A stretch of 64,000 nucleotides of DNA, from contig OZ244071.1 in the NCBI GenBank assembly GCA_965215555.1, positions 2,517,647 through 2,581,646 on the forward strand, read 5' to 3'. Shown here piece by piece: positions 1,400 through 17,207 of the stretch. The notes below the pieces were generated by a model, which was given only the letters and a program-made list of their open reading frames with translations, was not told the origin of the DNA and did not search any database. Position 1 is the stretch's first letter; each line of letters starts with the position of its first letter. The DNA comes from Dehalococcoidia bacterium (GTDB lineage Bacteria > Chloroflexota > Dehalococcoidia > Bin125). A program made the translations under genes and the position numbers.

Positions 1400-1591
1400 C
1401 TGAGATCTCCTCAACTTGACCGCTGTTGGTGATTGGCTGGAGGGTAGCTCCTCTCCATGGCAGGTCGCCATTGCAGGACGACGCATCTACGGCCGAGTGG
1501 AAGGACAGACGCAATGAAACCGCCTACCGACCATCGCTGAGAGCGTCGGCCCGAGCCGGCGTCGGCGCGGCCAGCTGCGGTTGCTCGGCGG

Positions 1592-1687
1592 ATGGGCGTG
1601 GATGACAGCGTCGCCTTCCACTACGGACGAGGCAAGCTCACGGTCCGCGAGCGGATTAGCCGGCGGGAAGATCGAGAAGCCTCCTGA
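1592..1687 (+). pseudogene. Short duplicated fragment of the acyl-CoA carboxyltransferase N-terminus (gene remnant)
   Basis: MGVDDSVAFHYGRGKLTVRERI... matches residues around ADSVAFHHGRGKLTVRERIELL of the gene at 4133..5695. About 60 nt of near-identity (1604-1665 vs 4205-4265), then a stop. Confidence 0.5.
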
Positions 1688-1708
1688 CTCGCTGCTAGTC
1701 TGTCGCCA

Positions 1709-4060
1709 ATGAATTGGATCGGCGGGATTCCTCGATGTGCCCCACACACTGAGACGACTTCGCGACATCACCTGTTGACCGTGTTCCTGGTGATCTTTGC
1801 GATCGCCGTCGCGATGAGCATCGCGACATCCGTCGCTCAAGCCGCCGATTCGGACACTGAGACGATCGAACTTGAACCAGGTGACAATTTCATCGGCTGG
1901 GTGGCGGAGCCGATCGCGGTCGCAGACATCTTCAAAGCGATCCCGCAGGCGGCTCTGATTTATCGCTGGGACGCCGACTCGCGGAAGTATCAACATGCGA
2001 TCCGCGAGATCGGCGGCAGTCTGGAAACGCTCCAGCCCGGCATGGCCGCGAATATACGTATCGAGGGCCAAGAGAGTGTCAAGTGGGAACGGCCGCTGAC
2101 GCCTGCCAAGGGCATGGTGCCGCTGTACTCGGGCGTGAACTGGGTCGCCTGGAACGGCCGCGATGACTGGCCGCTCGACCAGGTCGCGAGAGGTATCGGC
2201 AAGTCATTAGTCAGCATCGAAGTACGAGGTAATATCTACGAGCCTGATACTGAGTCCAACATCCCATCAATCCGTCGCGGCGACGCGCTCCGAGTCACCG
2301 TCAACCGAGACCTGCGCTGGCTGCAGCCAACGGGCATGATGCCCAAGGTGGTATTGGTCGGGGACATCCCGGAGTCACTTAACGATGAGATCATGGCTGA
2401 TATTAGAAGCGTTATGGAGTTCCTGTCCGAAACGTTCGCAATCGAGACGGATTTCTCAGGGACGACCATATTGCTGTATAGCGATATCGATGCAGCAGTC
2501 GACCACGCAGAGTCCAGCGCAGAACCGCATCTTGGCTATTCTCCAGACAGGCTTCGCGGAACCTTGGCATCCGGTCGGATTGCACAAGCACATCCATGGG
2601 GGTTTTTCATGTCTGCTTGTGGCTGGCTGACGCCGAGTCCGCCGCCATGCTACGGCCGGACGACAGAGACAATCGCTCATGAGTGGTTCCATGTGTTGCA
2701 AAGTCAGCTGTCTGCGAAGCAACGTGTGCGTAAGTCACCGGTGTGGATGGATGAGGGAGGTGCTACATGGGCAGAATGGCAATTGCCGAGCGAATTGCGT
2801 AAAGCGTCGAGTGAAGGCTCCAGACAGTGGAGACTCGATCGTGTCGCAGGAACAACTGAACCGCTAGAGAGCGCGGAAGCCGCCTACCACGGTTGGGAAT
2901 ACGATCTGGGCTCGTTGGCAGCCGATCGGTTGGTCAACCTGAGTGGCGCAGATTCACTGCTTGAGTTCTACCGCCAGCTGCATCCACAAATCATTGGCGA
3001 TGAGCGTCTCTGGGTGCGTGACCCATCTTGGCGCGAAGCGTTTGACGATGTATTCGGGCTGACCGCCGACCAGTTCTATGCGGATTATGCAGCCTGGCGG
3101 CAAACGCTGCCGAGACCTGCTCAACGGGTCAACTACGATCCAAACGACGTGAAACTCTCCGGGACAATCGAGCAAAGCGACGGCTCCCCTGCCACGGGGT
3201 TCATCTTCGTCGCCGAAGCGTATGATGGCGAGATTTCCGTCGGCATTCAGAATGCCGCGATCGTTGATGAAGCTGGGAACTTCTCTGTTTGGCTCGAGCC
3301 AGACACGATACACCGGGTCTGGGTGACACATGACAGCTGCACACTCTGGCCTACCGACAGCGGGCTGACAACTGTGCTCCCACAGCCGGGACAATACCGC
3401 GATCTCGACACTCGCAACCTACCGAGTCTGAATTTGAAGTTGCCTGAAGGCGCATGCGAGAACATACTGCGCGCTACCATCACTAGCTTGCGTGATGATC
3501 CACGCTACCTCGATGTGCTACTCATCGATGACGAGACACACAAATGGACACATGTACGGCGTCAAATCGGCGGCGCACATGTTGGTCATGCGCCACAGCC
3601 CGGGAAGTATCTGTTGCGCGTCAGGATCGGTGACTGCGGAGTGTACTACGCCAATGATGGTATGGTCGCCTTTAGACATGATGCCGATGTCCTGGAGATT
3701 GGCAAAGCCCCCGTTTCGATTGACTTCCGTGTACCGAAAAACATGTGCGTGCGACAGATTAGCGGCCGGCTTCTCAACGAAGATGGGGTGGCGGTCGGAG
3801 GAGTGTGGCTGAGCGCTTGGTACAATGGAGCCGAAAGTGGTGGCCAAACATCTGCGTCCGGAGACTTCAGCATCACCGTTCCCGAATCAGGACACTACAA
3901 GCTCCATATCTGGACCAGAGTTGCAGGATGTTACGTCAACTATGCAAATGCAGGCGCTACCACCGACTCGCGCCGAGCAACTCAAATCACTGTCGCCGAT
4001 GAGGATGTGACCGGTATCGAGTTCGTCGTGCCCAACGACCCTGCGAGCCTCTGCGAGTGA
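1709..4060 (+). CDS. Secreted HExxH zinc-metallopeptidase-like protein with C-terminal beta-sandwich (carboxypeptidase-regulatory-like) domains
   Basis: N-terminal signal/TM LLTVFLVIFAIAVAMSIATSVAQA. HEWFH (HExxH) followed about 20 aa later by MDEGG (gluzincin-like E). C-terminal SGRLLNEDGVAVGGVWL... repeats. GC about 52-58%, far below the flanks. Confidence 0.5.
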   Translation: MNWIGGIPRCAPHTETTSRHHLLTVFLVIFAIAVAMSIATSVAQAADSDTETIELEPGDNFIGWVAEPIAVADIFKAIPQAALIYRWDADSRKYQHAIREIGGSLETLQPGMAANIRIEGQESVKWERPLTPAKGMVPLYSGVNWVAWNGRDDWPLDQVARGIGKSLVSIEVRGNIYEPDTESNIPSIRRGDALRVTVNRDLRWLQPTGMMPKVVLVGDIPESLNDEIMADIRSVMEFLSETFAIETDFSGTTILLYSDIDAAVDHAESSAEPHLGYSPDRLRGTLASGRIAQAHPWGFFMSACGWLTPSPPPCYGRTTETIAHEWFHVLQSQLSAKQRVRKSPVWMDEGGATWAEWQLPSELRKASSEGSRQWRLDRVAGTTEPLESAEAAYHGWEYDLGSLAADRLVNLSGADSLLEFYRQLHPQIIGDERLWVRDPSWREAFDDVFGLTADQFYADYAAWRQTLPRPAQRVNYDPNDVKLSGTIEQSDGSPATGFIFVAEAYDGEISVGIQNAAIVDEAGNFSVWLEPDTIHRVWVTHDSCTLWPTDSGLTTVLPQPGQYRDLDTRNLPSLNLKLPEGACENILRATITSLRDDPRYLDVLLIDDETHKWTHVRRQIGGAHVGHAPQPGKYLLRVRIGDCGVYYANDGMVAFRHDADVLEIGKAPVSIDFRVPKNMCVRQISGRLLNEDGVAVGGVWLSAWYNGAESGGQTSASGDFSITVPESGHYKLHIWTRVAGCYVNYANAGATTDSRRATQITVADEDVTGIEFVVPNDPASLCE

Positions 4061-4132
4061 GACGGATGCAGCCCGACCGGTCGCTTCGTATCATCGTCCG
4101 TGACGCTTTCCGTCACTACGAGGGAGCAGCCA

Positions 4133-5695
4133 ATGAGCTGGCAGCCTGAGTTGGATGAGATGGAACGGCGGGCTGCGCTGGCTCGGCAGATGGGTGGGGC
4201 GGACAGCGTCGCCTTCCACCATGGACGAGGCAAACTCACGGTCCGTGAGCGGATTGAGCTGCTGATCGATCCTGGCGAGTTCCAGGAGACCGGCGTGCTG
4301 GCCGGCAACCCTCAATGGGATGGCAACGAACTTTCCGGCCTGACGCCTGCCAATGCCGTGGTGGGTGTGGCCAAGATCAACGGACGCAAAGTCGCAGTCC
4401 AGGGCGACGACTTCACCATTCGCGGCGGTTCGGCCGACGGCATGATCGGGACCAAGAACGGCTGGGCGATGCGCCACGCCTACATGAACCGGATCCCGTA
4501 CGTGCGTCTGCTCGACGCCACCGGCGGCAGCGTCAAGCACTTCGAGCAGCTCGGCCGCACCTACGTCGTCGGACCGGAGGTCGGCGGCGGTACCGGAGTC
4601 GACGACTTCCTCTGGTACATGCCGCTTGTCAATGTCGTGCTTGGCTCAGTCGCCGGCGCGCCGGCGGTGATCGCCTGCGACGGACATTTCAACGTGATGG
4701 TCAAAGGGACAAGCCAGCTATTCGTCGGTGGACCGCCGGTGGTCAAGGCGAGCCGCGGACTGGACATCTCCAAGGAAGAACTGGGTGGTGAGGATGTTCA
4801 TGTCTACGGCAACGGAGTCGTGCAGAACCTCGCCGAGACTGAGGAAGATGCGATGCACCAGGTCCGCCGCTTCCTGAGCTACCTACCGCAAAACGTCTGG
4901 GAAATGCCGCCACGGCTGGAACCGACCGATGACCCAGAGCGTCGCGAAGAGCGACTGCTCTCAGTCATCCCTCGCAACATGCGCAGGATCTACAACGTTC
5001 GCAAGATCTTGGATTGGGTGCTCGACAAAGACTCCTTCTTCGAGATCCAACCACATTGGGGCAAGTCGAGGATCACGGGACTCGCACGCGTTGACGGCTA
5101 CCCGGTTGGCGTGATGATCAACAACCCGCGCGAGAATGGCGGCTCGCCGAACAAGGACACGTCTGAGAAGATCATGCGCATGATCTCGCTCTGCGACACC
5201 TTCCACCTGCCGCTGGTCTATTTCTGCGACGAGCCCGGATTCTCGGTCGGTCCGGCCGACGAACAGTCCGGTCTCGTTCGCACAGGCGCGCGATTGATGT
5301 TGACCAGCCGGCTCTCGCAGATGCCCTACCTCGTCTTCATCACACGACAGGCGTACGGCGTCGCCGGAGGACTGCAGTACCGGCGAGGCAACGCGCTCTA
5401 CCGTCGCTACGCCTGGCCGTCGGCGCACTGGGGATCGATGCACATCGAGGGTGGTGTGACCGCCGCCTACCGTCGTGAAATCCGCGAGTCGGACGATCCG
5501 GAGGCCAAGCGCCTGGAGATCGAGGGGAGGCTCAACGAGATCCGCTCACCCATGAGAACCGCGCACGCATTCGGCATCGAGGACATGATCGATCCCAGAG
5601 AAACACGCCCGCTGCTAGTCGATTTCGTCCGCGACGCACAGTCCTACATCGCGCAACACCTCGGTCCAACGACTCGTATTCCTTACATGCCGTAG
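4133..5695 (+). CDS. Acyl-CoA carboxylase carboxyltransferase subunit (propionyl-CoA carboxylase beta / methylmalonyl-CoA carboxyltransferase family)
   Basis: ORF 4100..5695. Conserved GGADSVAFHHGRGKLTVRERIELLIDPGEF and the two crotonase-like CT halves. Start placed at ATG 4133, after GAGGGAG. Confidence 0.85.
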   Translation: MSWQPELDEMERRAALARQMGGADSVAFHHGRGKLTVRERIELLIDPGEFQETGVLAGNPQWDGNELSGLTPANAVVGVAKINGRKVAVQGDDFTIRGGSADGMIGTKNGWAMRHAYMNRIPYVRLLDATGGSVKHFEQLGRTYVVGPEVGGGTGVDDFLWYMPLVNVVLGSVAGAPAVIACDGHFNVMVKGTSQLFVGGPPVVKASRGLDISKEELGGEDVHVYGNGVVQNLAETEEDAMHQVRRFLSYLPQNVWEMPPRLEPTDDPERREERLLSVIPRNMRRIYNVRKILDWVLDKDSFFEIQPHWGKSRITGLARVDGYPVGVMINNPRENGGSPNKDTSEKIMRMISLCDTFHLPLVYFCDEPGFSVGPADEQSGLVRTGARLMLTSRLSQMPYLVFITRQAYGVAGGLQYRRGNALYRRYAWPSAHWGSMHIEGGVTAAYRREIRESDDPEAKRLEIEGRLNEIRSPMRTAHAFGIEDMIDPRETRPLLVDFVRDAQSYIAQHLGPTTRIPYMP

Positions 5696-6012
5696 TGGGG
5701 AAGTGCAGGCCCCGCGATAGACTGACAGCAAGCAATGGACGGTGGAGCAGGACCATGCGCGGACGAAGCGTCTTGAGGCCGCGAGTCAATCGCTACATTG
5801 AGATTTCGCGACCTCGGCGTTCATTTTGGACAGGCGCGGCGCGCCTCTGGGACTTTTCGGGCGCGTTGACTCCTCGGGTCAAGGTCAGGCGGTCGTTGTC
5901 AACCAAGACTGCGGCGGAAGCTCTAGCGGGGGACTGGGCCGTTGTCGGAAGAGATCTCCGAGAGGCCATGTCTTCGCAAGGCGAGTCAAGTGACCGGAAC
6001 GTCGTCTGAGCG

Positions 6013-6513
6013 ATGGCACGCTCGGAGCAGGACTACGAGGCATCGGCTGTCGAACCGCTGGAGTCGAATCGTTCGTTAGGCGCCGTCGTTCGCACCGAAT
6101 CCTCAGCCCTGCATGCAGGACCGTTGCCGCATCCTGACCAGTTTCGCCAATACGAGGAGACACTTCCAGGTGCAGCCGACCGTATTCTGACAATGGCCGA
6201 ACAGGAGTCGCAGCATCGACAGCTCATGGAGCGGAGCGTTCTGGACCTGGAAGAAGCGAGCATTGAGCTTCAGCGAGAGGTCACCCGAGAAGAGATTGCG
6301 CAATCGCGTTTAGGTCTCGTCATCGGGGCGTTTATCTCCGTCATTCTGGTTGTCACTGCGTTGGTCGTTGCCGTGATCGGCCACCCTTGGCCAGCCGTTG
6401 TGATAGGTACAGCGGACATCGTCGCTTTGGCCAGCATCTTCGTTTACGGCGCACGCACACGTAGCATCGACCAAGACTCCCCAGAAATTGTCGGCGAAGG
6501 CAATGAGGAGTGA
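6013..6513 (+). CDS. Membrane protein, DUF2335-like
   Basis: N-terminal PLPHPDQFRQYEETLPGAADRIL motif followed by two TM helices. Family assignment is from memory of the motif. Confidence 0.45.
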   Translation: MARSEQDYEASAVEPLESNRSLGAVVRTESSALHAGPLPHPDQFRQYEETLPGAADRILTMAEQESQHRQLMERSVLDLEEASIELQREVTREEIAQSRLGLVIGAFISVILVVTALVVAVIGHPWPAVVIGTADIVALASIFVYGARTRSIDQDSPEIVGEGNEE

Positions 6514-6580
6514 GATTGCCGCCGGCATCTAATGTGCCGATGGCCATTGATGGTATTCCTAAGTCGGTGAAGCGGCACGC

Positions 6581-7816
6581 CTAGAACGGTGGAGCCTTGT
6601 GCGACTCGACTTCCCCGATCGAGTCCGCGTCATAACCAAGTTCCCTCATCACTTCTGACGTGTGTTGGCCCAGGTCGGAGAACGAGTTCTTTGGCTCTCC
6701 CGGAGTACGGCTCATCCGGATCGGGATGCCGGCGACTCGACGCCGACCGACGTGGGGGATGTCCTTCTCCACGATGTAGCCGTTGACTAGCGCTTGCTCG
6801 TCGTTGAGCACCTCTTCGTAGTTCTGCACCCGTTGGGCAGTGATGCCGTCGGGGTGAATCTCAAAGAACGCTTGCCATGCTTCACTGGTTCGGCTCTTGA
6901 TCATTTCGGCGACGAATGGGCGTACGTCTTTGGCGGAGTCCATTGCCTGCTGGTCTCGGTAGGGATCACGCCCCTCGCGATGGTTCCATCGCGGATCGTC
7001 GGCGAGTTGAGGATTGCCGCCAAACTCGCAGAACTCGCGCCAGGTCTCGTCGTCACGGATGCCCATGCAGAATGCGACGCCGTCGGAGGCCTCGTAGATC
7101 CCGGTCATCGCCGAGACGACGGGATGAAAGCCGCCGTCCCTGGTTGGCAAGCGCCCGGTCGCTGAGGTGTGGTTGATCTCCCAGGCCTGCATCCAGATCA
7201 TCGCTCCGTATGACGAAGTCTGCACTTTCTGGCCGAGCCCGTCGCGTTGACGTGCGACCAGCGCCGTCAGCACACCCATGGCGAGCGCCATCGCGCCGCC
7301 GGTGTCGGCGATGATCGTGCCCGGAATGAGCTGCGGATCATCGGGTGTGCCTGTGACGCCGGATATGCCGCTGCGCGCTTGGGCGAACTGGTCGCTCATT
7401 CGGTTCTCACGCGCTGGGCCGTCCGGACCGAAGCCGTTAGCGACGGCGTAGACCAGTCCGGGATTGCGCGCCGACAGTCGCTCGTAGCCCATCCCCATCC
7501 GCTCCAGCGCCGGTTCTCGATAGTTGCTCAGAAACACGTCGGCCGTGTCGACCAGCTTGTCGACCAACTCCAGCCCGATTTCGGTGTGGATGTCGACGCA
7601 GACCGAGCGCTTGCCGTGCGATGCGCCGATGAACTGCGTGCCCACCGACTCATACGGCAGGTCGTTGTTTGCGCCGCGGTACCAACGATTGGCGTCGCCG
7701 ACGGGAGGTTCGACCTTGATCACATCGGCGCCCATATCGGACAGGAATCCGCCTGCGGCCGGACCCTGTACGGCAATCGTCAGCTCCACAACCCGAATGC
7801 CCTCAAGCGCTTCCAT
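6581..7816 (-). CDS. CoA-transferase family III (CaiB/BaiF-like)
   Basis: GIRVVELTIAVQGPAAGGFLSDMGADVIKVEPP hallmark. Length is 411 aa. Confidence 0.85.
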   Translation of the reverse strand: MEALEGIRVVELTIAVQGPAAGGFLSDMGADVIKVEPPVGDANRWYRGANNDLPYESVGTQFIGASHGKRSVCVDIHTEIGLELVDKLVDTADVFLSNYREPALERMGMGYERLSARNPGLVYAVANGFGPDGPARENRMSDQFAQARSGISGVTGTPDDPQLIPGTIIADTGGAMALAMGVLTALVARQRDGLGQKVQTSSYGAMIWMQAWEINHTSATGRLPTRDGGFHPVVSAMTGIYEASDGVAFCMGIRDDETWREFCEFGGNPQLADDPRWNHREGRDPYRDQQAMDSAKDVRPFVAEMIKSRTSEAWQAFFEIHPDGITAQRVQNYEEVLNDEQALVNGYIVEKDIPHVGRRRVAGIPIRMSRTPGEPKNSFSDLGQHTSEVMRELGYDADSIGEVESHKAPPF

Positions 7817-7963
7817 CCTGCTCCTCCTTCATCGCTGGCTGCCATCGCCGGCTGCCGCTCATCCTGCGGCCAATCGCTAGTATGGCGGAGGCCGCAACCT
7901 CTCGCGTTGGATGGCATGCGGCGGACGAGTAAAGGGCCGTGTGTTGGGAGTCGGGATCCAGCC

Positions 7964-10360
7964 ATGACGCTTCCGCTACATGATGTCCGAGTCCTCGACC
8001 TCTCCGACCATCGAGCGGCGCTGGGCTCGCGAATGCTGGCCGACCTCGGCGCCGAGGTCACGATGGTCGAGCCGCCGGGCGGCAACTCCATCCGCCATCA
8101 GGCACCCTATGTGGACGATCAGCCTTCGCCCGAACGCAGCTACCAGCATCTCTATTTCAACGTCAACAAGCGGTCGCTGGTGCTCGACTGGCGCAGCACC
8201 GAGGGACTTGACCGGCTGCTCGAACTGGCAACGTCGGCCGACATCTTGATCGAGTCGAACCAGCCCGGCGATTTCCCGGTTGACAGTCTGCGCGAAGCAA
8301 ATCCGCACCTGATCGTGGTCTCGGCGACGCCATACGGACAGCGCGGCCCCAGGTCGGACTGGCGAGCCACGGACCTGACGACCACTGCCGCAGGCGGACT
8401 GCTGCAAGTCAGCGGTGAACGAGCGGATCCGCCTGCGCATGGCGCGGCATTTCCGGGACACACGATGACCGGGCTGACCATCGCCTCGTCGGCAATGACC
8501 GCCCTGCATGGACGCGACCGCACGCCGGGCCGACCGGGTTGCCAGATCGATATCTCGATGCAAGAAGCGACCTCATTTCAGGTCGTCCAGACCTCGAATC
8601 CAAACACCTGGCGCTGGCGAGGAGAAGCGCCCTACCGGCCGGCGCTCTCGCAGGTGATCCGCTGCGCCGATGATCGCTGGATGGGCTGCAACATCTCGCC
8701 CAACAAACTGCCCGAGTTCATCGCGATGCTGGACGAGGCGGGCGTCGAGCATGATCTCGACGCGGACAACTGGGAAGTGATCCATCGCGGTGACCGAGCC
8801 GCCTGGCAATACCTCGAGAATCCGCTACAGGATCTGGCCAAAGATCTGGCCGCCTGCTGGCCTCGGCAGAAACTGCTCGAGCGTCTCTGGGCCGCTGGCA
8901 TGCCAGCCATGCCGACCTTGCGGTTCAGCGAGTTTGCGGAGAGCGGTCACTATCCGAGCTCAGGCCAGTTCATCTCAGTCGAGACGCCAGCGGTCGGCAA
9001 GGCCTTGAGCTATTCGCGCAGCCCGCTCGATCCCGTGCAGTCGCCGCTGCCGATGCAAACTGCGCCAAGCTTGGGCGAGCACACGGACTCCTCATTCACA
9101 TCGCCTGCTGCCGGAGATAACGAAGGCCGCAGAGAGTCCGCTCCATTCCCGGACATGCCCCTCTCGGGAATTCGTGTGCTTGATCTGACCTGGGTGGCCG
9201 CGGGTCCGCTGACGACGCGTTTGATGGCCAACTTCGGCGCCGAAGTGATCAAGGTCGAGTCCAGCGGCGACCGGATGGATCCCGTGCGGGTGCAACCGGT
9301 CAAGGGCGAGTTTCAGTTCGATCTCGCCGACCTCTTCAATGAGGTCAACACGGGCAAGCAATCGCTCACTGTTAATCTCGCCGATGAACAGGGCAAGGAT
9401 CTGCTTCGCGAGCTGATTGGCCATTGCGATGTGTTGGTCAACAACTATTCTGGCGGCTCACTGGCTCGGATGGGTTTCCCCTGGGAAGACCTGCGCAAGA
9501 TCAATCCGCGATTGATCAGCGTCCACTTGCCCGGCGTCGGCGGAGATAGCCCTTGGCGACCGCTGCGCACGCTTGGCAATCTACTCAAGGCGGCAGCCGG
9601 TATGAACTTCCAGATGGGATACCCGCATCAGCCGCCGCGAGGCATGGGCGTCGCCTATCCCGATTTCACCTCACCGCATGTTGGCGTCACAGCGATCCTC
9701 GCGGCGCTGCGCGCACGCGAAGAGACAGGTGAGGGACGCGAAATCGAACTGAGCCAGCTCAGCGCGACAGTGGCGCTGCTTGGTGCGCAGTGGATGCAGT
9801 TCGACCAGCTCGGCGAAGACCTGCCGCGTCTCGGCAACTCCGATCCCAACATGTGTCCTCACGGGGTGTTTCCATCGGCGGGAGACGATCAGTGGGTCGC
9901 CATCGCGCTGGAATCGGACGATCAATGGCCGGCGTTTGCAGAGACCATCGGGCGACCGGAGTGGATCCGGGATGCATCGCTGCAGTCCGTGGCGGGTCGC
10001 AAATTGCGCAACGACGAGATCGAGGCGGCGATCAGCGAGTGGACATCGCAGCGCTCAAAGTGGGAAGCAGCCGAGGCATTGCAGACAGCCGGGATCGCAG
10101 CCAACGCCGTCGAGGATCTGCGCGACATGATGGACATCGATGAGCACTTCCGCGATCACTACCAGCGCGTTGAGCAGCCCTCGCATCCTGGATTTGGCAT
10201 CTGGATCGACGGCGCGCCGTGGGAGTTTGCGCACTTGGAAAAGCGCATGCTCGAACGTGCGCCAATGCTCGGCGAGCACAACGAGATAATTCTCAGCGGA
10301 CTGCTGGGCAAGAGCGAAGCTGCAATCGCCGAGTTGATCGCCGCTGGCGTCGTAGGCTGA
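7964..10360 (+). CDS. Tandem-domain CoA-transferase family III protein (two CaiB/BaiF modules fused)
   Basis: ATG at 7964 is in frame with ORF 7247..10360. Module 1: VRVLDLSDHRAALGSRMLADLGAEVTMVEPPGG. Module 2: GIRVLDLTWVAAGPLTTRLMANFGAEVIKVESSGD. The upstream ORF extension overlaps the divergent caiB-like gene and is rejected. Confidence 0.8.
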   Translation: MTLPLHDVRVLDLSDHRAALGSRMLADLGAEVTMVEPPGGNSIRHQAPYVDDQPSPERSYQHLYFNVNKRSLVLDWRSTEGLDRLLELATSADILIESNQPGDFPVDSLREANPHLIVVSATPYGQRGPRSDWRATDLTTTAAGGLLQVSGERADPPAHGAAFPGHTMTGLTIASSAMTALHGRDRTPGRPGCQIDISMQEATSFQVVQTSNPNTWRWRGEAPYRPALSQVIRCADDRWMGCNISPNKLPEFIAMLDEAGVEHDLDADNWEVIHRGDRAAWQYLENPLQDLAKDLAACWPRQKLLERLWAAGMPAMPTLRFSEFAESGHYPSSGQFISVETPAVGKALSYSRSPLDPVQSPLPMQTAPSLGEHTDSSFTSPAAGDNEGRRESAPFPDMPLSGIRVLDLTWVAAGPLTTRLMANFGAEVIKVESSGDRMDPVRVQPVKGEFQFDLADLFNEVNTGKQSLTVNLADEQGKDLLRELIGHCDVLVNNYSGGSLARMGFPWEDLRKINPRLISVHLPGVGGDSPWRPLRTLGNLLKAAAGMNFQMGYPHQPPRGMGVAYPDFTSPHVGVTAILAALRAREETGEGREIELSQLSATVALLGAQWMQFDQLGEDLPRLGNSDPNMCPHGVFPSAGDDQWVAIALESDDQWPAFAETIGRPEWIRDASLQSVAGRKLRNDEIEAAISEWTSQRSKWEAAEALQTAGIAANAVEDLRDMMDIDEHFRDHYQRVEQPSHPGFGIWIDGAPWEFAHLEKRMLERAPMLGEHNEIILSGLLGKSEAAIAELIAAGVVG

Positions 10361-10431
10361 GCGCGCAAGCTGAGCCGTGAAGCTCAGCCGACATGCTGAG
10401 CCTGAAGTTGGTCCGATCCTGAGGAGGAACC

Positions 10432-11394
10432 ATGCCCAAGTATGTGATGCTGCCGCCGATCGACGATGACATGCGCTTCTGGGCGCAGCAGATGCGTGAT
10501 GAGATTCCGGGGCTTGATGTCGTGGTGGTTGAGGACGAAGCAGATGGTCCGCAGGAACTGGCCGATGCCGACGGCGCATACGGCTGGGTTGCTCCGGATG
10601 TCCTGCCCAACACCGAGCGCCTGCGTTTGCTGCAAAATCCCTTCGCCGGGCCGCCGGTCGGTTGGTACTACCCCGAGTTGGCCGAGCATTCGGTCACGGT
10701 CAGCAATCCGCGAGGCATCTACTCCGATCACATCGCGCATCACATCATGATGTACATGCTGGCGCTCTCACGAGGACTGCCGTACTACAGCGCTGCCCAG
10801 GCAGAGGGTCGCTGGAACAAGAGTGCGCGCAAACGTGGCTACATCGATCTGACCACATCGACCGTGCTGATCAACGGGGTCGGTGGCATTGGATCTGAGG
10901 CGGCTCGGTTGTGCTCGGCATTTGGATGCCGAGTGATCGGTGTCGATCCGAGCCCGTACGGTGAGTTCGACGGTGAAATTGTCGCGCCTACGGAGTTAGA
11001 CGACCGCCTGCCCGAAGCCGACTTCGTTGTCACGACCGTGCCTCACACTCCCGAGACGGAGTTCATGTGGAACGCTGATCGCTTCACGGCGATGAAAAAC
11101 TCCGCCTACTTCATCAACATCGGCCGCGGGATGACCTGCAGGCTTGACGACCTGGTCACAGCACTCGACAACGGGGACATTGCTGGAGCCGGACTCGATG
11201 TGTTTGAGATCGAGCCGCTCCCCGAAGGACATCCGCTCTGGCAGATCGAGAACGTGATCATCACGCCGCACATCGCCGTCGCCGATGCGGAGAACATCCC
11301 CGAGCGACGCTTCGAGTTGATCCTCGAGAATGCACGACGACTGGTTGAGGGCCGTGATTTCGTTAACGTCGTCGACAAGGAGAAGTGGTACTGA
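10432..11394 (+). CDS. D-isomer-specific 2-hydroxyacid dehydrogenase family, NAD-binding
   Basis: GVGGIGSEAARL Rossmann motif, catalytic-domain motifs and GGAGGA RBS at 10420-10426. Confidence 0.85.
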   Translation: MPKYVMLPPIDDDMRFWAQQMRDEIPGLDVVVVEDEADGPQELADADGAYGWVAPDVLPNTERLRLLQNPFAGPPVGWYYPELAEHSVTVSNPRGIYSDHIAHHIMMYMLALSRGLPYYSAAQAEGRWNKSARKRGYIDLTTSTVLINGVGGIGSEAARLCSAFGCRVIGVDPSPYGEFDGEIVAPTELDDRLPEADFVVTTVPHTPETEFMWNADRFTAMKNSAYFINIGRGMTCRLDDLVTALDNGDIAGAGLDVFEIEPLPEGHPLWQIENVIITPHIAVADAENIPERRFELILENARRLVEGRDFVNVVDKEKWY

Positions 11395-11537
11395 CGCTTC
11401 TCGCGTCGTCCTCATCGACTGAAGGTCGGATCCGAAGCAGCTCAACACCAACCTCGCCAAATCCGCGCTTGTCGCGGATATCTCGCGGCATCCTCAACAC
11501 TGGCCGTGACCGCGCAGATGGCGCAGAGCGACACGAA

Positions 11538-14090
11538 CTATCGAATCACTTCCGAGATCATCAGATCCGTCATTTCGTCCTCGCTCAGCCCCAGCACCTG
11601 TCGGTAGACCTCTTCGTTGTGCTCTCCGAAGAATGGCGCGCGACGAATCGGCAGACGCTCGCCATTCCAGAGGAAGGGCTGATTCTGCGCCATGAACTTG
11701 ATCCCGATCGGATGATCGAACTCGTGGAAGAATCCGTCTAGCGACGGGTCTGATTCGACCAAGTCCTGGATGTCCTCATTAGGACCGGCCGGGATGCCCG
11801 CGGCTACCAATAGCTCCGTCGCTTCCCAGAGATCGAGACCGGAGGTCCAGGCAGTGACGGCCGATTCGATCTCCTCCTCGGCAGCCTGACGGCCGCTCAA
11901 TGTTCGTAGATCATCGCGGGCCGCAAGATCGTCTCGTCCTATGACGCGGCACAACTCCAGCCAATCGACAGTGTTGCGCACGTCGAGCGCCAGCCACTTG
12001 TCGTCGCCCGCGCACTGGAAGTTGCCGTGGGGCGACGACTCGGGTGATCGATTGCCACGTCGCGGCGGCGTCTCGCCGTTGGCCAGTTGCTCGATGAGTT
12101 CGGTGTCGAGCAGTTGGATGCCTGCCTCATACTGGGGAATCTCAACTTCCTGGCCGATGCCGGTGCGCTCGCGCTGGATCAGTGCCGAGACGATGGCCGT
12201 CACCGCTAACGGCGCGAGTGTGAAGTCGGTGTGCAGCAGCACGCCTGTTGGCTTCCGATCTGCTGGCCCAGTGTGCGCGGCTAGTCCGCAGAGTGCAACG
12301 ACGCTGTTGCCGATGCCCTTCCATGACGCTTTCGGACCCCAGGTGCCCATCACCGGGAAGCTGGCACACACAATCCGAGGGTTGATCTGCTTCAGATCGT
12401 CATAGCCCAGGCCGAGGCGCTTCATCACACCGCCGGTGAAGTTGTCGGTGACCACATCCGCATCGCGGATCAGGTCATAGGCGATGCGCAGGCCGTCAGG
12501 AGCGCTGAGATTGACATTGACGCTGCGCTTGTCGGTGTTGCAGTCCTGGAAGAACGCCCCGGTCTCAATTGAGGGTGGATCGTGAGCATTGAGCGCGACG
12601 CGCAGCGTGTCAATCCGCGCGTCCGACTCAATCTTGATCACATCCGCGCCCAGATTCGCCATCAGTTCGGTCGTGAGAGGACCCGCCGCCTGCCAGCAGA
12701 AGTCAATCACGCGAATGCCCTTGAGCGGCAGGTCATCGCGGTCGATTGCTCGGCCCGATTGCTTACCATTTTGCGCCTGATCTGTCGGGGCGCGACTGCT
12801 CCGCGCGATCCGCTCTTCCCCTCCCGAGCGAGGGGAGATGCCGAAAGCCTGCCCTGCACTTGATGCGGGGGCTGCAGGCGGTCCGACAACCAGTCCGCTT
12901 GCTGACATTCGCTCGTACTCGGCTTCGTCCACACCAAGCAACTCCACCAACACATCAGCCGAGGCCGCCCCCAGCGTCGGGGCCGGACGCCCGACCGGCT
13001 CGTATCCGGTCGAATGGACTGGCAATCGCGGCAGATCGATCGTCCGATCAAACTGCGGATGTTCGACCGGCAAGAATGCGCCACGTTCGTGGAGATGTGG
13101 ATCCTCGACAATGTCCTTGACCGAGTTCACAGGCACGACGAGGAAGCCTCGTGACTGTCCCTCGAAACACAGCTCGTCGCGTGGCAACGTGGCGCAGGCT
13201 CGTTGGAATGCCTGGTGCGTTTCGGTACCCCAATCAGGCATCCAGATGTCACCGGGACGCTCAGTCCCAATCAGCCCGTCGTAGCCGACTCGTTCGTTCA
13301 ACCACTCGGCGAACGCGGCGTAGCGCTGGTCGGTGGTCGGCACGAGCCCGAACGTCACCCAGTCGCCGTCCTGTGCCTGCACGAGGAAGGAAATGTGGCC
13401 ACCCGGCCGATAGGCCTTCTCGCCCATGTGAACCCACATGTTCTCGTTGGCGAAGTGGATCGTGGTCGAGAGCATCGCCTCCTGCAGCGAGATGTACGCG
13501 TGGTTGGCTTGGTCGCCGTTGCGACGGTCGTAGAGCATCGCCGTCGCCGTCGCCGCGGCGACCTGACTGGCCTGCTTGTAGGCCAGCCGCCCCGCCGGAT
13601 AGTCGGGCGCGACCTCAGGGAAGCCCAGACCCAGCATCAGTCCGCCACTGGCGACGCCGACAATGTCGGAGGCTGGCAGCGCTTCGCCACCGCGCCGCAT
13701 GACGGCGTCAACCACGCCCAGGTGGGGATGCAATCGCTGCAGCCGATCACGATCAAAGAAGCGGCGAGAGGAGGCAGACTTGTCCAGTGGGGCCAGCACG
13801 ACGTCGGCAGACGCCAACAGCCGATCAATCAGATCCCATGCGCCCGGCGCATCGAAGTTCAACGCCAGGCTGCGCTTGCCAGCGTTGTACAACAGGTGGC
13901 GCAGTCCGCTTTCCGGGTCGTTGCGACCCTCAAGATGCGGACCGGCAATGCGCAGAGCGTCGCCGGCTGCGGACTCAACGCGAATCACGTCGGCGCCAAA
14001 GTCGGACAGCCAGCGAGCGCCGAGCGCCAGGCACTCGTCGCTCAGATCAATGACAACTGAGCCGGCGAGCGGGAGGTCGGATACAGCCAT
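11538..14090 (-). CDS. Tandem-domain CoA-transferase family III protein (second paralog)
   Basis: Module 1: SVVIDLSDECLALGARWLSDFGADVIRVESAAGD. Module 2: GIRVIDFCWQAAGPLTTELMANLGADVIKIESD. Length is 850 aa. Confidence 0.8.
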   Translation of the reverse strand: MAVSDLPLAGSVVIDLSDECLALGARWLSDFGADVIRVESAAGDALRIAGPHLEGRNDPESGLRHLLYNAGKRSLALNFDAPGAWDLIDRLLASADVVLAPLDKSASSRRFFDRDRLQRLHPHLGVVDAVMRRGGEALPASDIVGVASGGLMLGLGFPEVAPDYPAGRLAYKQASQVAAATATAMLYDRRNGDQANHAYISLQEAMLSTTIHFANENMWVHMGEKAYRPGGHISFLVQAQDGDWVTFGLVPTTDQRYAAFAEWLNERVGYDGLIGTERPGDIWMPDWGTETHQAFQRACATLPRDELCFEGQSRGFLVVPVNSVKDIVEDPHLHERGAFLPVEHPQFDRTIDLPRLPVHSTGYEPVGRPAPTLGAASADVLVELLGVDEAEYERMSASGLVVGPPAAPASSAGQAFGISPRSGGEERIARSSRAPTDQAQNGKQSGRAIDRDDLPLKGIRVIDFCWQAAGPLTTELMANLGADVIKIESDARIDTLRVALNAHDPPSIETGAFFQDCNTDKRSVNVNLSAPDGLRIAYDLIRDADVVTDNFTGGVMKRLGLGYDDLKQINPRIVCASFPVMGTWGPKASWKGIGNSVVALCGLAAHTGPADRKPTGVLLHTDFTLAPLAVTAIVSALIQRERTGIGQEVEIPQYEAGIQLLDTELIEQLANGETPPRRGNRSPESSPHGNFQCAGDDKWLALDVRNTVDWLELCRVIGRDDLAARDDLRTLSGRQAAEEEIESAVTAWTSGLDLWEATELLVAAGIPAGPNEDIQDLVESDPSLDGFFHEFDHPIGIKFMAQNQPFLWNGERLPIRRAPFFGEHNEEVYRQVLGLSEDEMTDLMISEVIR

Positions 14091-14274
14091 GTGTGCACGT
14101 TAGGTTTATGCGGGTGTTGGCGGTAGAGGTCAGGGTAGGCTGGGTTGGGGCCAGCTCGTCGGGGCGTTGGCCTTGAGACTAGGGCGCGTGGACGGGGAAA
14201 CTTGGGACTGAACCTCGGGCTTCGGGACCATGGGCGTCACCACTCACAGGCTGTCGACCGTCTAAAGTGGATGT

Positions 14275-14484
14275 ATGACGACACCGCACACCCAGCCCGA
14301 GATCGAGGGGCGCCAGCAACGGACGCTAGAGGCGATCAGCAACCTGGCGGAGCAGATGATGATTCGGTTCGATGCGCTTGAGCAGAACATCGAGATACTG
14401 AGCGACGGTCAGCAGCGTCTCGAGAACCGCGTCGAGGACATCGCCCGGCATCTCGGAGTGCCGCCGCGCAACGGAACGACCTGA
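14275..14484 (+). CDS. Small hypothetical coiled-coil protein (69 aa)
   Basis: High third-position GC across the whole ORF. Overlaps a minus-strand ORF that loses coding signature here. Confidence 0.35.
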   Translation: MTTPHTQPEIEGRQQRTLEAISNLAEQMMIRFDALEQNIEILSDGQQRLENRVEDIARHLGVPPRNGTT

Positions 14485-14544
14485 GTACCATCCCGGATGG
14501 CAACTGCTGCGGAACGACTCACGATCTATAGGTAACCACGCTGC

Positions 14545-14652
14545 GCGGTGCTGAGCATTGAGGGCTTTGACGCGGATGTAGCCGGGGTTGTGTTCGGCGT
14601 AGCGTTGCCAGAGTCGGTCGATGGTGGTTCGGAGGTGGAAGCGGTTGGGCAT
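14545..14652 (-). pseudogene. N-terminal gene fragment (MPNRFHLRTTIDRLWQRYAEHNPGYIRVKALNAQHRAA), possibly a mobile-element remnant
   Basis: Good RBS (AAAGGGG) and strong codon bias for about 36 codons, then the coding signature collapses. Lies just outside the left direct repeat of the low-GC island. Confidence 0.25.
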
Positions 14653-14736
14653 GGCGGGCCCCTTTGGTCTTAGGAAGTATGTATGTTCTTAACACATCGG
14701 AGTCGGGTCTGACCAGGTTGTCTGAGGGGAGATCGC

Positions 14737-14830
14737 GTGGCGTCGGCTGAGGGACGGCTGGCGAGTGTCGCCGTTGATGGGCTTAGATGTTTCGTGATTC
14801 CTGCCTGCGCAGGAATGACGGAGGGAGGCA
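14737..14830. repeat. Left copy of an about 70-90 bp direct repeat flanking the low-GC island; contains hairpin TTCCTGC-CTGC-GCAGGAA and the AATGACGG motif
   Basis: gtgtcgccgttg..ttcgtgattcctgcctgcgcaggaatgacggaggga is shared with 16990-17075. Confidence 0.6.
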
Positions 14831-14873
14831 GGGAGCGGCAGTGGCGGAGCAGGAGGTCGGAACTCCAGGCCGC

Positions 14874-15743
14874 TCAGTCAGGCGAGCGCGTAACCCGAAC
14901 CCAAAGATTCTGCGGTGCCGTCTCGTGCGACAGGACGGACTCGTACACCATCGCAATCACCCAGCCAATGGCGCCGGCTGACCACTCTGGCATCGACACT
15001 TCGATTCCGGCAACTGCGCTCGTCCACTCGACCCAATGCAGATCTGGTCTCGTCGGGCGCTCGTTCGGTGGAATGATGGACGGGCCGAAACCGAACGGCT
15101 TAGCGTGTTCAGGAGGAAGCTTCTCGAAGGATTCCGGAGTAATGAGGTCACCTACCTGACCTGTCCCCAAAGTGACGACCGCTTGAATGCGCTCAGGTTC
15201 ACCACGGCTGAACCAGTCAGAAGCGCTATGCAGAGTCCACCAGTGAGGTCTCTGATTCGGGACAAGGCCGTATGCGAGGACCTCATATGCCGATATCTGA
15301 ACCTTGCCGAACAAGCGCAGAGAGTCGTCCACACATTGAACCAACGGCGGGATCGCCAGCGCCGCGTCAGCAGGCGGCCCCTGGTCGTCAGGGGTCGGAA
15401 ACGCTGAAGGCACCCATTCACCCTGGGACAGCTCCACGTCTGACCGGAGTTCATCAATGATCGGGTCATCTTCGATCGTGTATGTACCCGGGAAGTAATC
15501 GAGGCCCACCTGAACGAACCCGATCTCAGGTCCGTCATCGTTGGAGAACTCAGCCTCGTTCATGTTCCAGAGCAACGTCACCGCAGGCTCCTTCGACGAA
15601 CCCATTCTGGTCCAGCCCATGAGTTCAGACCGCGAGAGGAAGACGAAGTACAGGTCTGCCTCGCCGACCTCGCTGGACCGATGCCGATCGAATGTCATAT
15701 CGCCAAACGCCGTGACTATCAGAGTGCCTCCGGACACGGTCAC
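14874..15743 (-). CDS. Hypothetical protein (289 aa) in the low-GC island
   Basis: Normal protein-like composition. GTG start at 15743 overlaps the stop of an upstream small ORF (GTGA). Local GC about 55%. Confidence 0.5.
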   Translation of the reverse strand: MTVSGGTLIVTAFGDMTFDRHRSSEVGEADLYFVFLSRSELMGWTRMGSSKEPAVTLLWNMNEAEFSNDDGPEIGFVQVGLDYFPGTYTIEDDPIIDELRSDVELSQGEWVPSAFPTPDDQGPPADAALAIPPLVQCVDDSLRLFGKVQISAYEVLAYGLVPNQRPHWWTLHSASDWFSRGEPERIQAVVTLGTGQVGDLITPESFEKLPPEHAKPFGFGPSIIPPNERPTRPDLHWVEWTSAVAGIEVSMPEWSAGAIGWVIAMVYESVLSHETAPQNLWVRVTRSPD

Positions 15744-15879
15744 CTTCCTGAGAAACCCGCCAGGGTCTGAAAATCATCCGCAGCCCTGAATCCGACCTGC
15801 GCATCAGGGACGGGAGCCACGCGATCAGGAATCAGGATGAGGCGCCCGAATGCGTCAACATACAGTGTTGGATCCATGT
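15742..15879 (-). CDS. Small ORF (45 aa, MDPTLYVDAFGRLILIPDRVAPVPDAQVGFRAADDFQTLAGFSGR), translationally coupled to the downstream gene
   Basis: AAGGAAAGG RBS 9 nt upstream of ATG and an in-frame stop 6 codons upstream. TGA overlaps the GTG of the 289-aa gene. Confidence 0.3.
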
Positions 15880-16152
15880 CGGGCGCCTTTCCTTAGTCAG
15901 AACAAACAGACCGCATCAAGGATTGCACAATAGGTTACGCGGAGGGCTGTACCTCTGGTAAGGGGGATCGGAATGCCCGACTAGATCGACATCTACTTTC
16001 GACCGCCATCCAACCACAGCGGTAGCAGGTTTGCAGACGGTCCTGGCATTGACCTTTCTGCCTCCTTGATCCCAGGCTCGAACACGTTGCTTGTTGTAGG
16101 ACTCGGTCTGCCAGTAGCAATGTCCATCACGCGGCACTCTGCACCAATGCGA

Positions 16153-16743
16153 CTATAGCCACACCTTGACATCGGCATACTCTGGGCACGCTGAGGATGA
16201 ATCATCTTCCCACCAGCCGTGGGTTGACACGTCTCGACGATTGCGAGAGACATGCGCATAATCCACCCAAGAACTGAACACGCATCGACTCTGGCCGTAG
16301 GCGCCAGGCTGTTCAGATTCGACATACGTTGTACCATCTGACGGTTGCACATCAGACCCTTGATAGGCAGTCCAACTGCCTCCGGACCGATGGCCATCGC
16401 CAAAGTCAAGGTTGGCCGCAATAGCGACGGTGTCGCAGTCTCCAGACTCGGTGGAAGCCAAGTCGATGGCGTTGTCCGGCCTGATCGGGGTGACGGTAAC
16501 CGAGCAGCTCTTGGTGATGTCGGCGAGATTGTCTTCACTCGACACATCTCGCAGAGTCAATGACATCTCGCACTCGCGATTCGTAGAGTAGGAGTACTTG
16601 GTTAGCTCGCCCATTCTCTTCAGCGTCATGGTGTTGACGGACATCGTCAATGAGTAGAGGCCGTCGCAGACGATCTGCGCTGGCTGTTCCGTTTCCGGCT
16701 CCAGCTCCGACTCAGCCCGAACCTGACCAGGGGTGAACGCCAT
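16153..16743 (-). CDS. Hypothetical Cys-containing protein (196 aa), probably secreted or membrane-anchored
   Basis: Hydrophobic helix FKVGIGILGAVVPAVVLAIVAF is encoded in frame immediately upstream of the annotated Met, with no ATG before a stop. Ten Cys residues. Low-GC region. Confidence 0.45.
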   Translation of the reverse strand: MAFTPGQVRAESELEPETEQPAQIVCDGLYSLTMSVNTMTLKRMGELTKYSYSTNRECEMSLTLRDVSSEDNLADITKSCSVTVTPIRPDNAIDLASTESGDCDTVAIAANLDFGDGHRSGGSWTAYQGSDVQPSDGTTYVESEQPGAYGQSRCVFSSWVDYAHVSRNRRDVSTHGWWEDDSSSACPEYADVKVWL

Positions 16744-16989
16744 GAACGCGACGATCGCCAGGACGACCGCGGGAACAACCGCTCCCAGGATCCCAATCCC
16801 AACCTTGAACCGACCGCGATGAAGATGTAACGCAGCATCCTTTCATCGCCCGGCGAGACCTTCTCGTCGGGCGGTGCATAGTGTCACAGATTTGCCATCA
16901 GGTCACGCTCCGTCCTGCGGCACTGCCGACCGTTGGGCAATCGCCTGGACAATGGCTGCCACCGCGGATCGGGAGTGGCGACTGGGGTT

Positions 16990-17075
16990 GGGTGGGACGG
17001 ATGTTGGGTGTCGCCGTTGGAAGGCTTGGGTGGTTCGTGATTCCTGCCTGCGCAGGAATGACGGAGGGATGTCAG
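16990..17075. repeat. Right copy of the direct repeat flanking the low-GC island
   Basis: Shares about 70 bp with 14737-14830 and ends in a duplicated caggaatgacgg. Confidence 0.6.
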
Positions 17076-17207
17076 GAATGACGGGGTATTGGGTCGGGTG
17101 ATGACGGTGTGGGGGCTATGCGACCACTTGGCGAATTGTGTAGCTTGTGACACGCAGCGCCATGCGTCGAGTATGGCGTCGTTTCGGTACGGAATCAGAG
17201 GAACGAC

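Follow-up and report, generated by a model that had tools for sequence, protein, structure and literature searches.

The 64,000-nucleotide stretch analysed here (hereafter the window; contig OZ244071.1, assembly GCA_965215555.1) comes from a marine and probably sponge-associated Dehalococcoidia bacterium of a lineage that we take to be SAR202-like and to include sponge symbionts. The window carries a variable segment (14133–17127), with a CoA-transferase gene on one side and a DUF1800 gene on the other, in which a pair of direct repeats encloses three open reading frames (ORFs), all on the minus strand: one of 289 aa (14874–15743), one of 45 aa (15740–15877) and one of 196 aa (16153–16743). 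These ORFs were recovered as given in a preliminary description of this DNA, which had taken the repeat-bounded interval for a site-specifically inserted cassette. The three ORFs are of different nature, namely an intact gene of a family here called X, a stub holding the 5′ end of another X gene, and part of a pseudogene for an exported cysteine-rich (Cys-rich) protein.

The GC content between the repeats is 58.3% (59.3% over the whole variable segment), compared with a window mean of 62.0% and a standard deviation of 1.6% for windows of equal size; the lower GC inside had been described correctly, but not the figures of 55% inside and 68% outside. About 3% of the equal-size windows are GC-poor to this level, and the window contains two further stretches with a GC content as low as this. 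The dip is genuine yet modest, and the contrast in GC at third codon positions (GC3) is the better indicator (0.68 for X and 0.63 for the Cys-rich frame, with 0.74–0.85 in the flanking genes). The composition supports the view of an accessory, atypical segment. No tRNA gene was found in the window, no ORF of 14133–17127 matched an integrase or recombinase in scans of Pfam, NCBIfam, PADLOC and PHROGs, and a scan for sigma-70 promoters and terminators gave no signal exceeding that of shuffled sequence. The same four collections and sequence-profile searches of the Protein Data Bank (PDB) returned no significant match for X or for the Cys-rich proteins, in agreement with the preliminary description, where no domain had been recognised in the proteins of the island; an exact look-up of the window X and of the related proteins P0020 and P0028 found no record.

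Comparison with the same site in other genomes (loci numbered L001 onwards) defined the boundaries of the segment. In L036, L037, L032 and L063, whose flanks show about 91% nucleotide identity to those of the window, the repeat family and the module genes described below are absent, and the site is occupied by two metabolic genes with a native-like GC3 (0.74), in the order CoA-transferase, enoyl-CoA hydratase, HpcH-like aldolase, DUF1800. Homology between the window and L036/L037 breaks at 14132 and at 17128, outside the repeats, and the differing unit is therefore 14133–17127 with the repeats inside it. Thus, the segment is indeed accessory, but it is wider than the repeat-bounded unit first proposed. 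Its predicted absence from some relatives was also seen, but in none of them as an empty site with a single repeat, since the relatives hold either modules or the two metabolic genes.

Other genomes carry related content at this site. L001 is 97% identical to the window over 9 kb and has an identical structure, and L007 and L015 are further variants. In L102 and L019, with flanks 88–93% identical, two modules lie between the DUF1800 and CoA-transferase genes, in the order repeat, Cys-rich gene CysA (with two stops), X, repeat, Cys-rich gene CysB, a gene for a 153-aa protein with four transmembrane helices (4-TM), X, repeat, and finally the gene fragment and 69-aa gene described further below. 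The window sequence 16740–17084 matches both module leaders in L019. Modules at the site share the repeat, the leader and the N-terminal half of the Cys-rich gene on one side and the 3′ end of X with the repeat on the other, segments that would offer ample substrate for homologous exchange.

The 289-aa ORF is an intact gene whose likely true start is the GTG at 15737, with GGAAGG as Shine-Dalgarno sequence. A word-seeded search of 5.8 billion proteins returned 17 homologues and an exhaustive profile search 382 cluster representatives, all of 250–300 aa and unannotated. The ratio of nonsynonymous to synonymous substitution rates (dN/dS) is 0.19–0.20, a weaker constraint than that on the neighbouring DUF1800 gene (0.02–0.08). 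With a ratio of about 0.2 the gene is judged functional; X is under purifying selection and is the sole intact module gene in the window. The AlphaFold2 (AF2) model (predicted local distance difference test, pLDDT, 72.6; predicted template modelling score, pTM, 0.79) consists of two ferredoxin-like α/β halves, and the protein is predicted to be cytoplasmic. Foldseek comparison with PDB and BFVD structures gave no match below E = 1e-3; the best matches (E ~1e-2, TM score ~0.2, not significant) were to the double-ferredoxin folds of chlorite dismutase and Cas6. Relationship to HUH nucleases or REP-associated tyrosine transposases (RAYT; REP, repetitive extragenic palindrome) was considered and rejected, since none of the conserved columns holds an invariant His or Tyr.

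The window X shows 89% nucleotide identity to a copy in L002, confined to 14871–15728, that is, to the gene body, and the context of the two genes is unrelated, which argues that X moves. The L002 copy, with an identity also given as 88%, has on its flanks (8382–9131 and 10864–11671) a protein in which a nucleotidyltransferase and HEPN are fused and, on the opposite strand, three small multi-transmembrane ORFs (77, 83 and 77 aa). L004 holds three tandem X genes without an exported gene. A 33%-identical homologue is located in L103–L105 (~1000–9600), between a restriction-modification-like cluster of ResIII helicase, N6_N4 methyltransferase and DUF2513 genes and a resolvase fragment, with DDE transposases nearby, in what is a defence-and-mobile-element island.

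The 45-aa ORF, a 45-codon stub at 15740–15877 on the minus strand, overlaps with its TGA the GTG of the 289-aa ORF, as had been described. It had been proposed as a small regulator, a role that its sequence contradicts. The first 22 residues (MDPTLYVDAFGRLILIPDRVAP; codons 1–22, 15812–15877) share 77% identity with the N-terminal end of the X protein encoded directly after the intact Cys-rich gene in L003, and the DNA at 15813–15898, which includes the ribosome binding site (to ~15898), matches the 5′ ends of the X genes in L007, L019 and L003. For the remaining 84 nt (15729–15812) no homologue was found. A regulator, or the small ORF of a type II toxin-antitoxin pair, was rejected on these grounds. 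L002 has the same X as the window and lacks the 45-aa ORF. Since the stub matches the 5′ end of the cognate X and the present X matches L002 over the gene body only, the resident X was displaced by another X allele, leaving a 22-codon 5′ stub behind. The stop codon of the stub sits between the Shine-Dalgarno sequence of X and its probable start at 15737, an arrangement that would be compatible with translational coupling. A second stub was found in L004, where 20 codons match the next-but-one paralogue without a difference; a tandem duplication that has its junction at a microhomology accounts for this stub. The two stubs, one of them at such a junction, are best seen as recombination scars, and a site-specific mechanism was rejected for them because of the L004 junction.

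The 196-aa ORF belongs to a longer frame (15916–16830, minus strand) that corresponds to a ~300-aa exported Cys-rich protein with a signal or transmembrane anchor followed by two β-sandwich domains, its relatives being P0020–P0023. The family comprises ~18 proteins; the full-length relatives of ~300 aa start with MQLHRGRFKVGLGILGALVPAVVLA...QVRA/ESE, a signal peptide or anchor. The transmembrane helix described in frame upstream of the ORF was found, and neither the missing ATG nor a GTG or TTG start is present there. Intact copies (L003, L015, L019B) start with TTG, for which the window (16828–16830) and L001 have TTA; a frameshift at the start was rejected, the lesion being this substitution. 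An in-frame TAG follows at 16153–16155, where the 97%-identical P0019 has Gln, and the C-terminal 73 codons after it continue in frame to 15916. The ORF itself contains 6 Cys; the 10 Cys formerly attributed to it are reached over the whole 306-codon frame, read through the TAG. With its start lost and this nonsense codon, the ORF is part of a pseudogene, not a functional protein. In L001 (97% identical) the start is lost likewise, but the nonsense codon is another one (Trp to stop) and 2 codons are deleted; the L019/L102 copies carry yet other stops. Because these lesions are independent and different, the decay is real, progressive and recurrent, neither a sequencing artefact nor recoding; the latter was rejected since the kinds and positions of the in-frame stops vary among genomes.

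The AF2 model of the intact relative P0021 (pLDDT 72.5) shows a disordered or transmembrane N-terminus followed by the two β-sandwich domains, and Foldseek against the PDB placed these closest to β-sandwiches of the immunoglobulin/fibronectin type III (Ig/FnIII) kind in cytokine receptors and adhesins (best E ~1e-3, TM score ~0.2, not significant). P0020–P0023 and P0028/P0030 have ~130–150 N-terminal residues in common and differ thereafter. In L102, L019 and L015 the gene with the CysB-type C-terminus has the 4-TM 153-aa gene next after it. At the locus edge in L007 the 4-TM gene again lies directly upstream of X, and L002 has the last 18 codons of a CysB remnant, then a 4-TM gene (63% identical), then X, an ‘orphan’ arrangement. 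In L003 (3473–16921) an intact pair of Cys-rich gene and X and a degraded second pair are surrounded by ORFans whose N-termini resemble helix-turn-helix motifs, with a UvrD-type helicase as neighbour; the region may be an integrative element.

The direct repeats that bound the interval in the preliminary description were found as 76 nt at 14751–14826 and 16994–17069, with 87% identity and the 3′-most 36 nt identical. A profile built on family members extends both copies to ~115 nt on the plus strand: the left one to 14725–14840 (hairpin at 14797–14816; nhmmer E = 7e-27) and the right one to 16971–17084 (hairpin at 17040–17059; E = 6e-24). Inside the identical 36 nt lies the palindrome ATTCCTGC-CTGC-GCAGGAAT, with an 8-bp stem. 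A 31-nt core occurs exactly twice in the window, compared with 0 expected by chance. The right-copy variant with its inner flank (CCACCGCGGATCGGGAGTGGCGAC) is also present in L001, in L015 and twice in L019, and constitutes a conserved region upstream of the Cys-rich gene in several genomes.

Further copies, which the preliminary description had proposed to look for, are abundant. An exact scan of one genome per prokaryotic species located the core at 31 loci in 10 Dehalococcoidia/Chloroflexi assemblies, with at least 13 loci on the chromosome OZ247431.1, and tandem arrays contain 3–7 units with a period of 108–124 nt. Complete chromosomes of Dehalococcoidia metagenome-assembled genomes bearing the repeat also include OZ219805.1, OZ242281.1, OZ219765.1 and OZ244861.1. 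Among the 10 assemblies is MPNM01 ‘bin125’, a Chloroflexi bin of the sponge Aplysina aerophoba with 62.3% GC (PMC5649159). In an alignment of 53 copies the 3′ ~45 nt with the hairpin are conserved, and the 5′ part is G-rich, variable and divided into subfamilies. The G-rich strand folds into a stem of 8–12 bp (the 8 bp of ATTCCTGC/GCAGGAAT, extendable to ~12 bp); diverged copies differ mostly in the loop, and three copies show the compensatory change of ATTCC/GGAAT to GTCCC/GGGAC. Wherever gene calls exist (L001, L102) the copies are intergenic. A search of Rfam revealed no RNA family for the repeat or the island, either at the gathering threshold or at E ≤ 1. The repeat thus has the features of a dispersed intergenic element resembling REPs and bacterial interspersed mosaic elements (BIMEs), and with a core that is spread over 31 loci in 10 assemblies and frequently repeated in tandem it is not an attachment (att) site.

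In the arrays at L008 (5968–6706), L007 (5302–5782), L027 (5273–5563) and L035 (446–1092) the units are near-identical, arranged head to tail and joined by G-rich linkers, with neither ORFs nor unique spacers. Two identities were rejected for them. CRISPR arrays do not fit, whole units being near-identical and unique spacers missing. The attC sites of integron cassettes are imperfect palindromes over a whole element of 60–140 nt, with R′′/L′′-L′/R′ sites and one element per promoterless ORF, while here only the short 3′ hairpin is palindromic, the tandem arrays are free of ORFs and the interval holds several genes. At L029 (6076–6460), beside two repeat copies and an intact 106-aa gene, ORF translations resemble tRNA-gene read-through, as judged from the translations alone. 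The alternative allele has a sister REP-type hairpin (ATACCCGC...GCGGGTATGACGGAGG) near the right junction, just upstream of the DUF1800 promoter region (L036 ~9840–9900; L063 ~1040–1075), so that both alleles have REP-type hairpins at this intergenic spot.

These data bear directly on the cassette first proposed, in which the 76-nt repeats would be attL and attR of a site-specifically inserted unit carrying either a toxin/immunity pair or a small regulator with its effector. A segment of lower GC is indeed bracketed by two repeats that point the same way and share an identical 36-nt core, and that segment is missing from some close relatives. Islands flanked by att sites have an integrase inside or adjacent and a duplicated att core specific to the junctions, and often lie at a tRNA. 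In contrast, the core found here recurs dozens of times per genome, also within tandem arrays, the breakpoints at 14132 and 17128 fall outside the repeats, there is no integrase, recombinase or tRNA in or beside the island, no empty site with one repeat was found, and the ‘regulator’ and the Cys-rich gene turn out to be a gene stub and a pseudogene. The cassette model is already contradicted by these observations and we regard it as highly improbable.

We consider it rather probable, instead, that the locus holds one worn copy of an accessory module which recurs and recombines, at a site between the CoA-transferase and DUF1800 genes that varies among strains, with an effector and its partners as the functional part of this reading; the structural and evolutionary account is given with good confidence. 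An intact module consists of a REP-like repeat with a leader, the gene of an exported disulfide-rich protein, optionally that of the 4-TM protein, X (~280 aa, cytoplasmic) and a further REP-like repeat. The exported protein is predicted to contain two β-sandwich domains, the C-terminal half existing in at least two types. In the window its gene is dead through the loss of the start codon and the nonsense codon, and the original X partner was swapped for another X allele, so that the 22-codon stub now reads as a 45-aa ORF. Modules may be gained, duplicated and swapped by homologous or microhomology recombination, for which the conserved leader and N-terminal domain, the conserved 3′ end of X and the repeats could serve as substrates, and the ‘orphan’ X may be expressed from the old leader and stub via translational coupling.

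As for the function, several features recall polymorphic toxin/immunity loci: the exported protein combines a conserved N-terminal half with alternative C-terminal halves, the 4-TM gene stands behind the CysB type, L002 has the orphan arrangement, L004 has tandem X genes alone, a distant X lies in a defence-and-mobile-element island, and the exported genes are repeatedly dead while X is intact. By analogy with such loci, the exported protein could tentatively be a polymorphic effector or a surface protein, and the 4-TM protein and X its cognate protective partners; this is the leading guess on function, though taken by itself we rate it as less likely than not. Several points weigh against the proposed module and its function. 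No toxin, immunity, secretion-system or defence domain was found in any component (Pfam, NCBIfam, PADLOC, PHROGs, PDB), and the modelled pair of β-sandwich domains suggests binding or adhesion, not enzymatic toxicity. The CysB-type C-terminal domain occurs only in 4 proteins, all of one architecture, and X, found after both C-terminal types, shows no obvious co-variation with the putative toxin domain. The direction of the replacement, module for metabolic genes or the reverse, could not be polarised, because relatives with 66–74% DUF1800 identity have yet other gene content upstream. Furthermore, a profile search showed that the modules of L002–L004, at other chromosomal sites, are without the repeat, and all repeat-bearing module copies represent one orthologous site; the repeats therefore do not belong intrinsically to the module, and any role of theirs in mobility is putative.

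The main rival of the effector/partner function takes the exported Cys-rich protein for a surface adhesin or receptor of use in the sponge or particle habitat, or for a phage receptor, in a host-interaction module, with X as a maturation factor or regulator and pseudogenisation resulting from relaxed selection or from phage- or host-driven selection against the surface protein. The model of two Ig/FnIII-like β-sandwich domains behind a signal or transmembrane anchor, whose weak structural neighbours are adhesins and receptor ectodomains, would suit such a protein, as does the finding of no toxin domain. The repeat family is also present in the Chloroflexi bin from Aplysina aerophoba (PMC5649159), and an abundance of eukaryote-like and surface proteins has been reported for sponge symbionts (PMC6306507). 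Tandem X arrays without an exported gene (L004) are not readily accommodated, however, and the tight pairing of the CysB-type C-terminus with the 4-TM gene and the orphan series of 3′ remnant, 4-TM gene and X in L002 are left unexplained; an adhesin module appears unlikely.

A second alternative concerns X itself, which might be a selfish or defence element (e.g. anti-phage) that spreads as a promoterless cassette, its link with the Cys-rich gene being incidental to a shared hot spot. X is found without the Cys-rich gene in L002, L004 and L103–L105, its neighbours include the HEPN/nucleotidyltransferase pair, the ResIII/methyltransferase system, the resolvase fragment and transposases, it is the only gene kept intact, and its family is far larger (382 cluster representatives compared with ~18 Cys-rich proteins). 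On the other hand, X has no PADLOC, PHROG or Pfam match, and in every complete Cys-rich locus examined (L003, L019/L102) it follows in the same orientation, at a distance of 10–40 nt or after the 4-TM gene. This consistent position behind the Cys-rich gene argues for a functional link, and X as an independent element seems quite improbable.

Returning to the recombining module, its boldest form would be that the Cys-rich protein, the 4-TM protein and X constitute an unrecognised polymorphic effector/immunity system of Dehalococcoidia, built from new folds and families and evolving by cassette displacement, and that the ~110-nt repeats form a new REP/BIME-like family that marks and promotes the exchange; we rate this as unlikely. 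If the functional guess were true, the locus would give a first handle on genes for inter-bacterial competition or protection in an abundant uncultured lineage of marine, sponge-associated Chloroflexi, and such genes would be made of unannotated protein families. With or without a function, three cautions are useful for the automated calling of islands and small ORFs: att sites may be imitated by REP-like repeats, a displaced gene stub may be taken for a small regulatory ORF, and exported-protein genes may decay while their partner genes persist.

To the left of the left repeat two further small genes were characterised; the 69-aa, 106-aa and 153-aa proteins gave no significant match in Pfam, NCBIfam, PADLOC or PHROGs. 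A 69-aa gene (14275–14484, plus strand) encodes a small coiled-coil-like protein conserved in L001, L102, L019 and L007; its changes are mostly synonymous (dN/dS 0.18 with respect to L102) and it travels with the module-bearing allele. The decaying gene fragment that had been placed at 14545–14652 is the 5′ end (~31 codons; 14558–14652, minus strand) of a 106-aa gene, with homology to L029 and L007 ending at ~14558; the gene is intact at L029 6746–7066 (tblastn, 73% identity over 44 aa). Beyond this point, at 14326–14557, the truncated frame runs on for ~75 non-homologous codons antisense to the 69-aa gene, and the resulting spurious 108-aa ORF is annotated as a gene in L102.

Two other regions of the window were observed in passing. 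The island adjoins a dense acyl-CoA metabolism cluster (6581–14090) that comprises a 2-hydroxyacid dehydrogenase, a carboxyl transferase and three genes of CoA-transferase family III, of which two are double-domain fusions (850 aa; 775 aa as called in L001). A 783-aa ORF (1709–4060) with only a sub-threshold match to CarboxypepD_reg lies where the GC content of the window is lowest (~57%) and may be a further accessory or surface protein.

The elements of the locus can be compared with several known systems. REP and BIME elements are known from Enterobacteria and Pseudomonas, and the family in the window resembles them in being a short, GC-rich, imperfectly palindromic hairpin that is extragenic and multi-copy, single or clustered, with compensatory changes in the stem. 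It is unlike them in its unit of ~100–115 nt, in the long G-rich 5′ part with subfamilies and in the arrays with a period of 108–124 nt. No RAYT gene was found with it, although no search aimed at one was made. We know of no REP-type family described in Dehalococcoidia.

The module in turn recalls the polymorphic toxin/immunity loci, such as the cdiA-CT/cdiI genes of contact-dependent inhibition (CDI) and the Rhs systems, which include orphan modules. The likeness lies in an exported protein whose N-terminal part is conserved and whose C-terminal domains alternate, in small partner genes directly downstream, in 3′ remnants followed by partner genes (L002), in dead exported genes beside intact partners and in displacement stubs. 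Unlike these systems, the module has no recognisable toxin, immunity, pre-toxin or secretion domain, its exported protein is a β-sandwich protein of only ~300 aa, its C-terminal domain is not shared with other scaffolds and X stands behind both C-terminal types. Arrays of orphan immunity genes reportedly form acquired interbacterial defence islands, and similar to these are the tandem putative protective paralogues without an effector (the three X genes of L004) and the neighbourhoods rich in mobile and defence genes; the difference is that no recombinase was found beside the X arrays examined and that the protective role of X is putative.

Finally, marine bacteria have flexible genomic islets, which are hot spots of replacement flanked by conserved core genes. 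The site described here shares with them the alternative gene content between two conserved flanks (~90% flank identity) and the atypical composition, and differs in that its variable content is a tandem module punctuated by repeats, not a glycosylation or transporter cluster. Of the preliminary description, the view of an accessory and mobile locus, possibly of a toxin/immunity-like kind, survives, and the locus is best described as a mosaic, decaying accessory module that occupies a replacement hot spot and is bracketed by members of a new REP-like repeat family.

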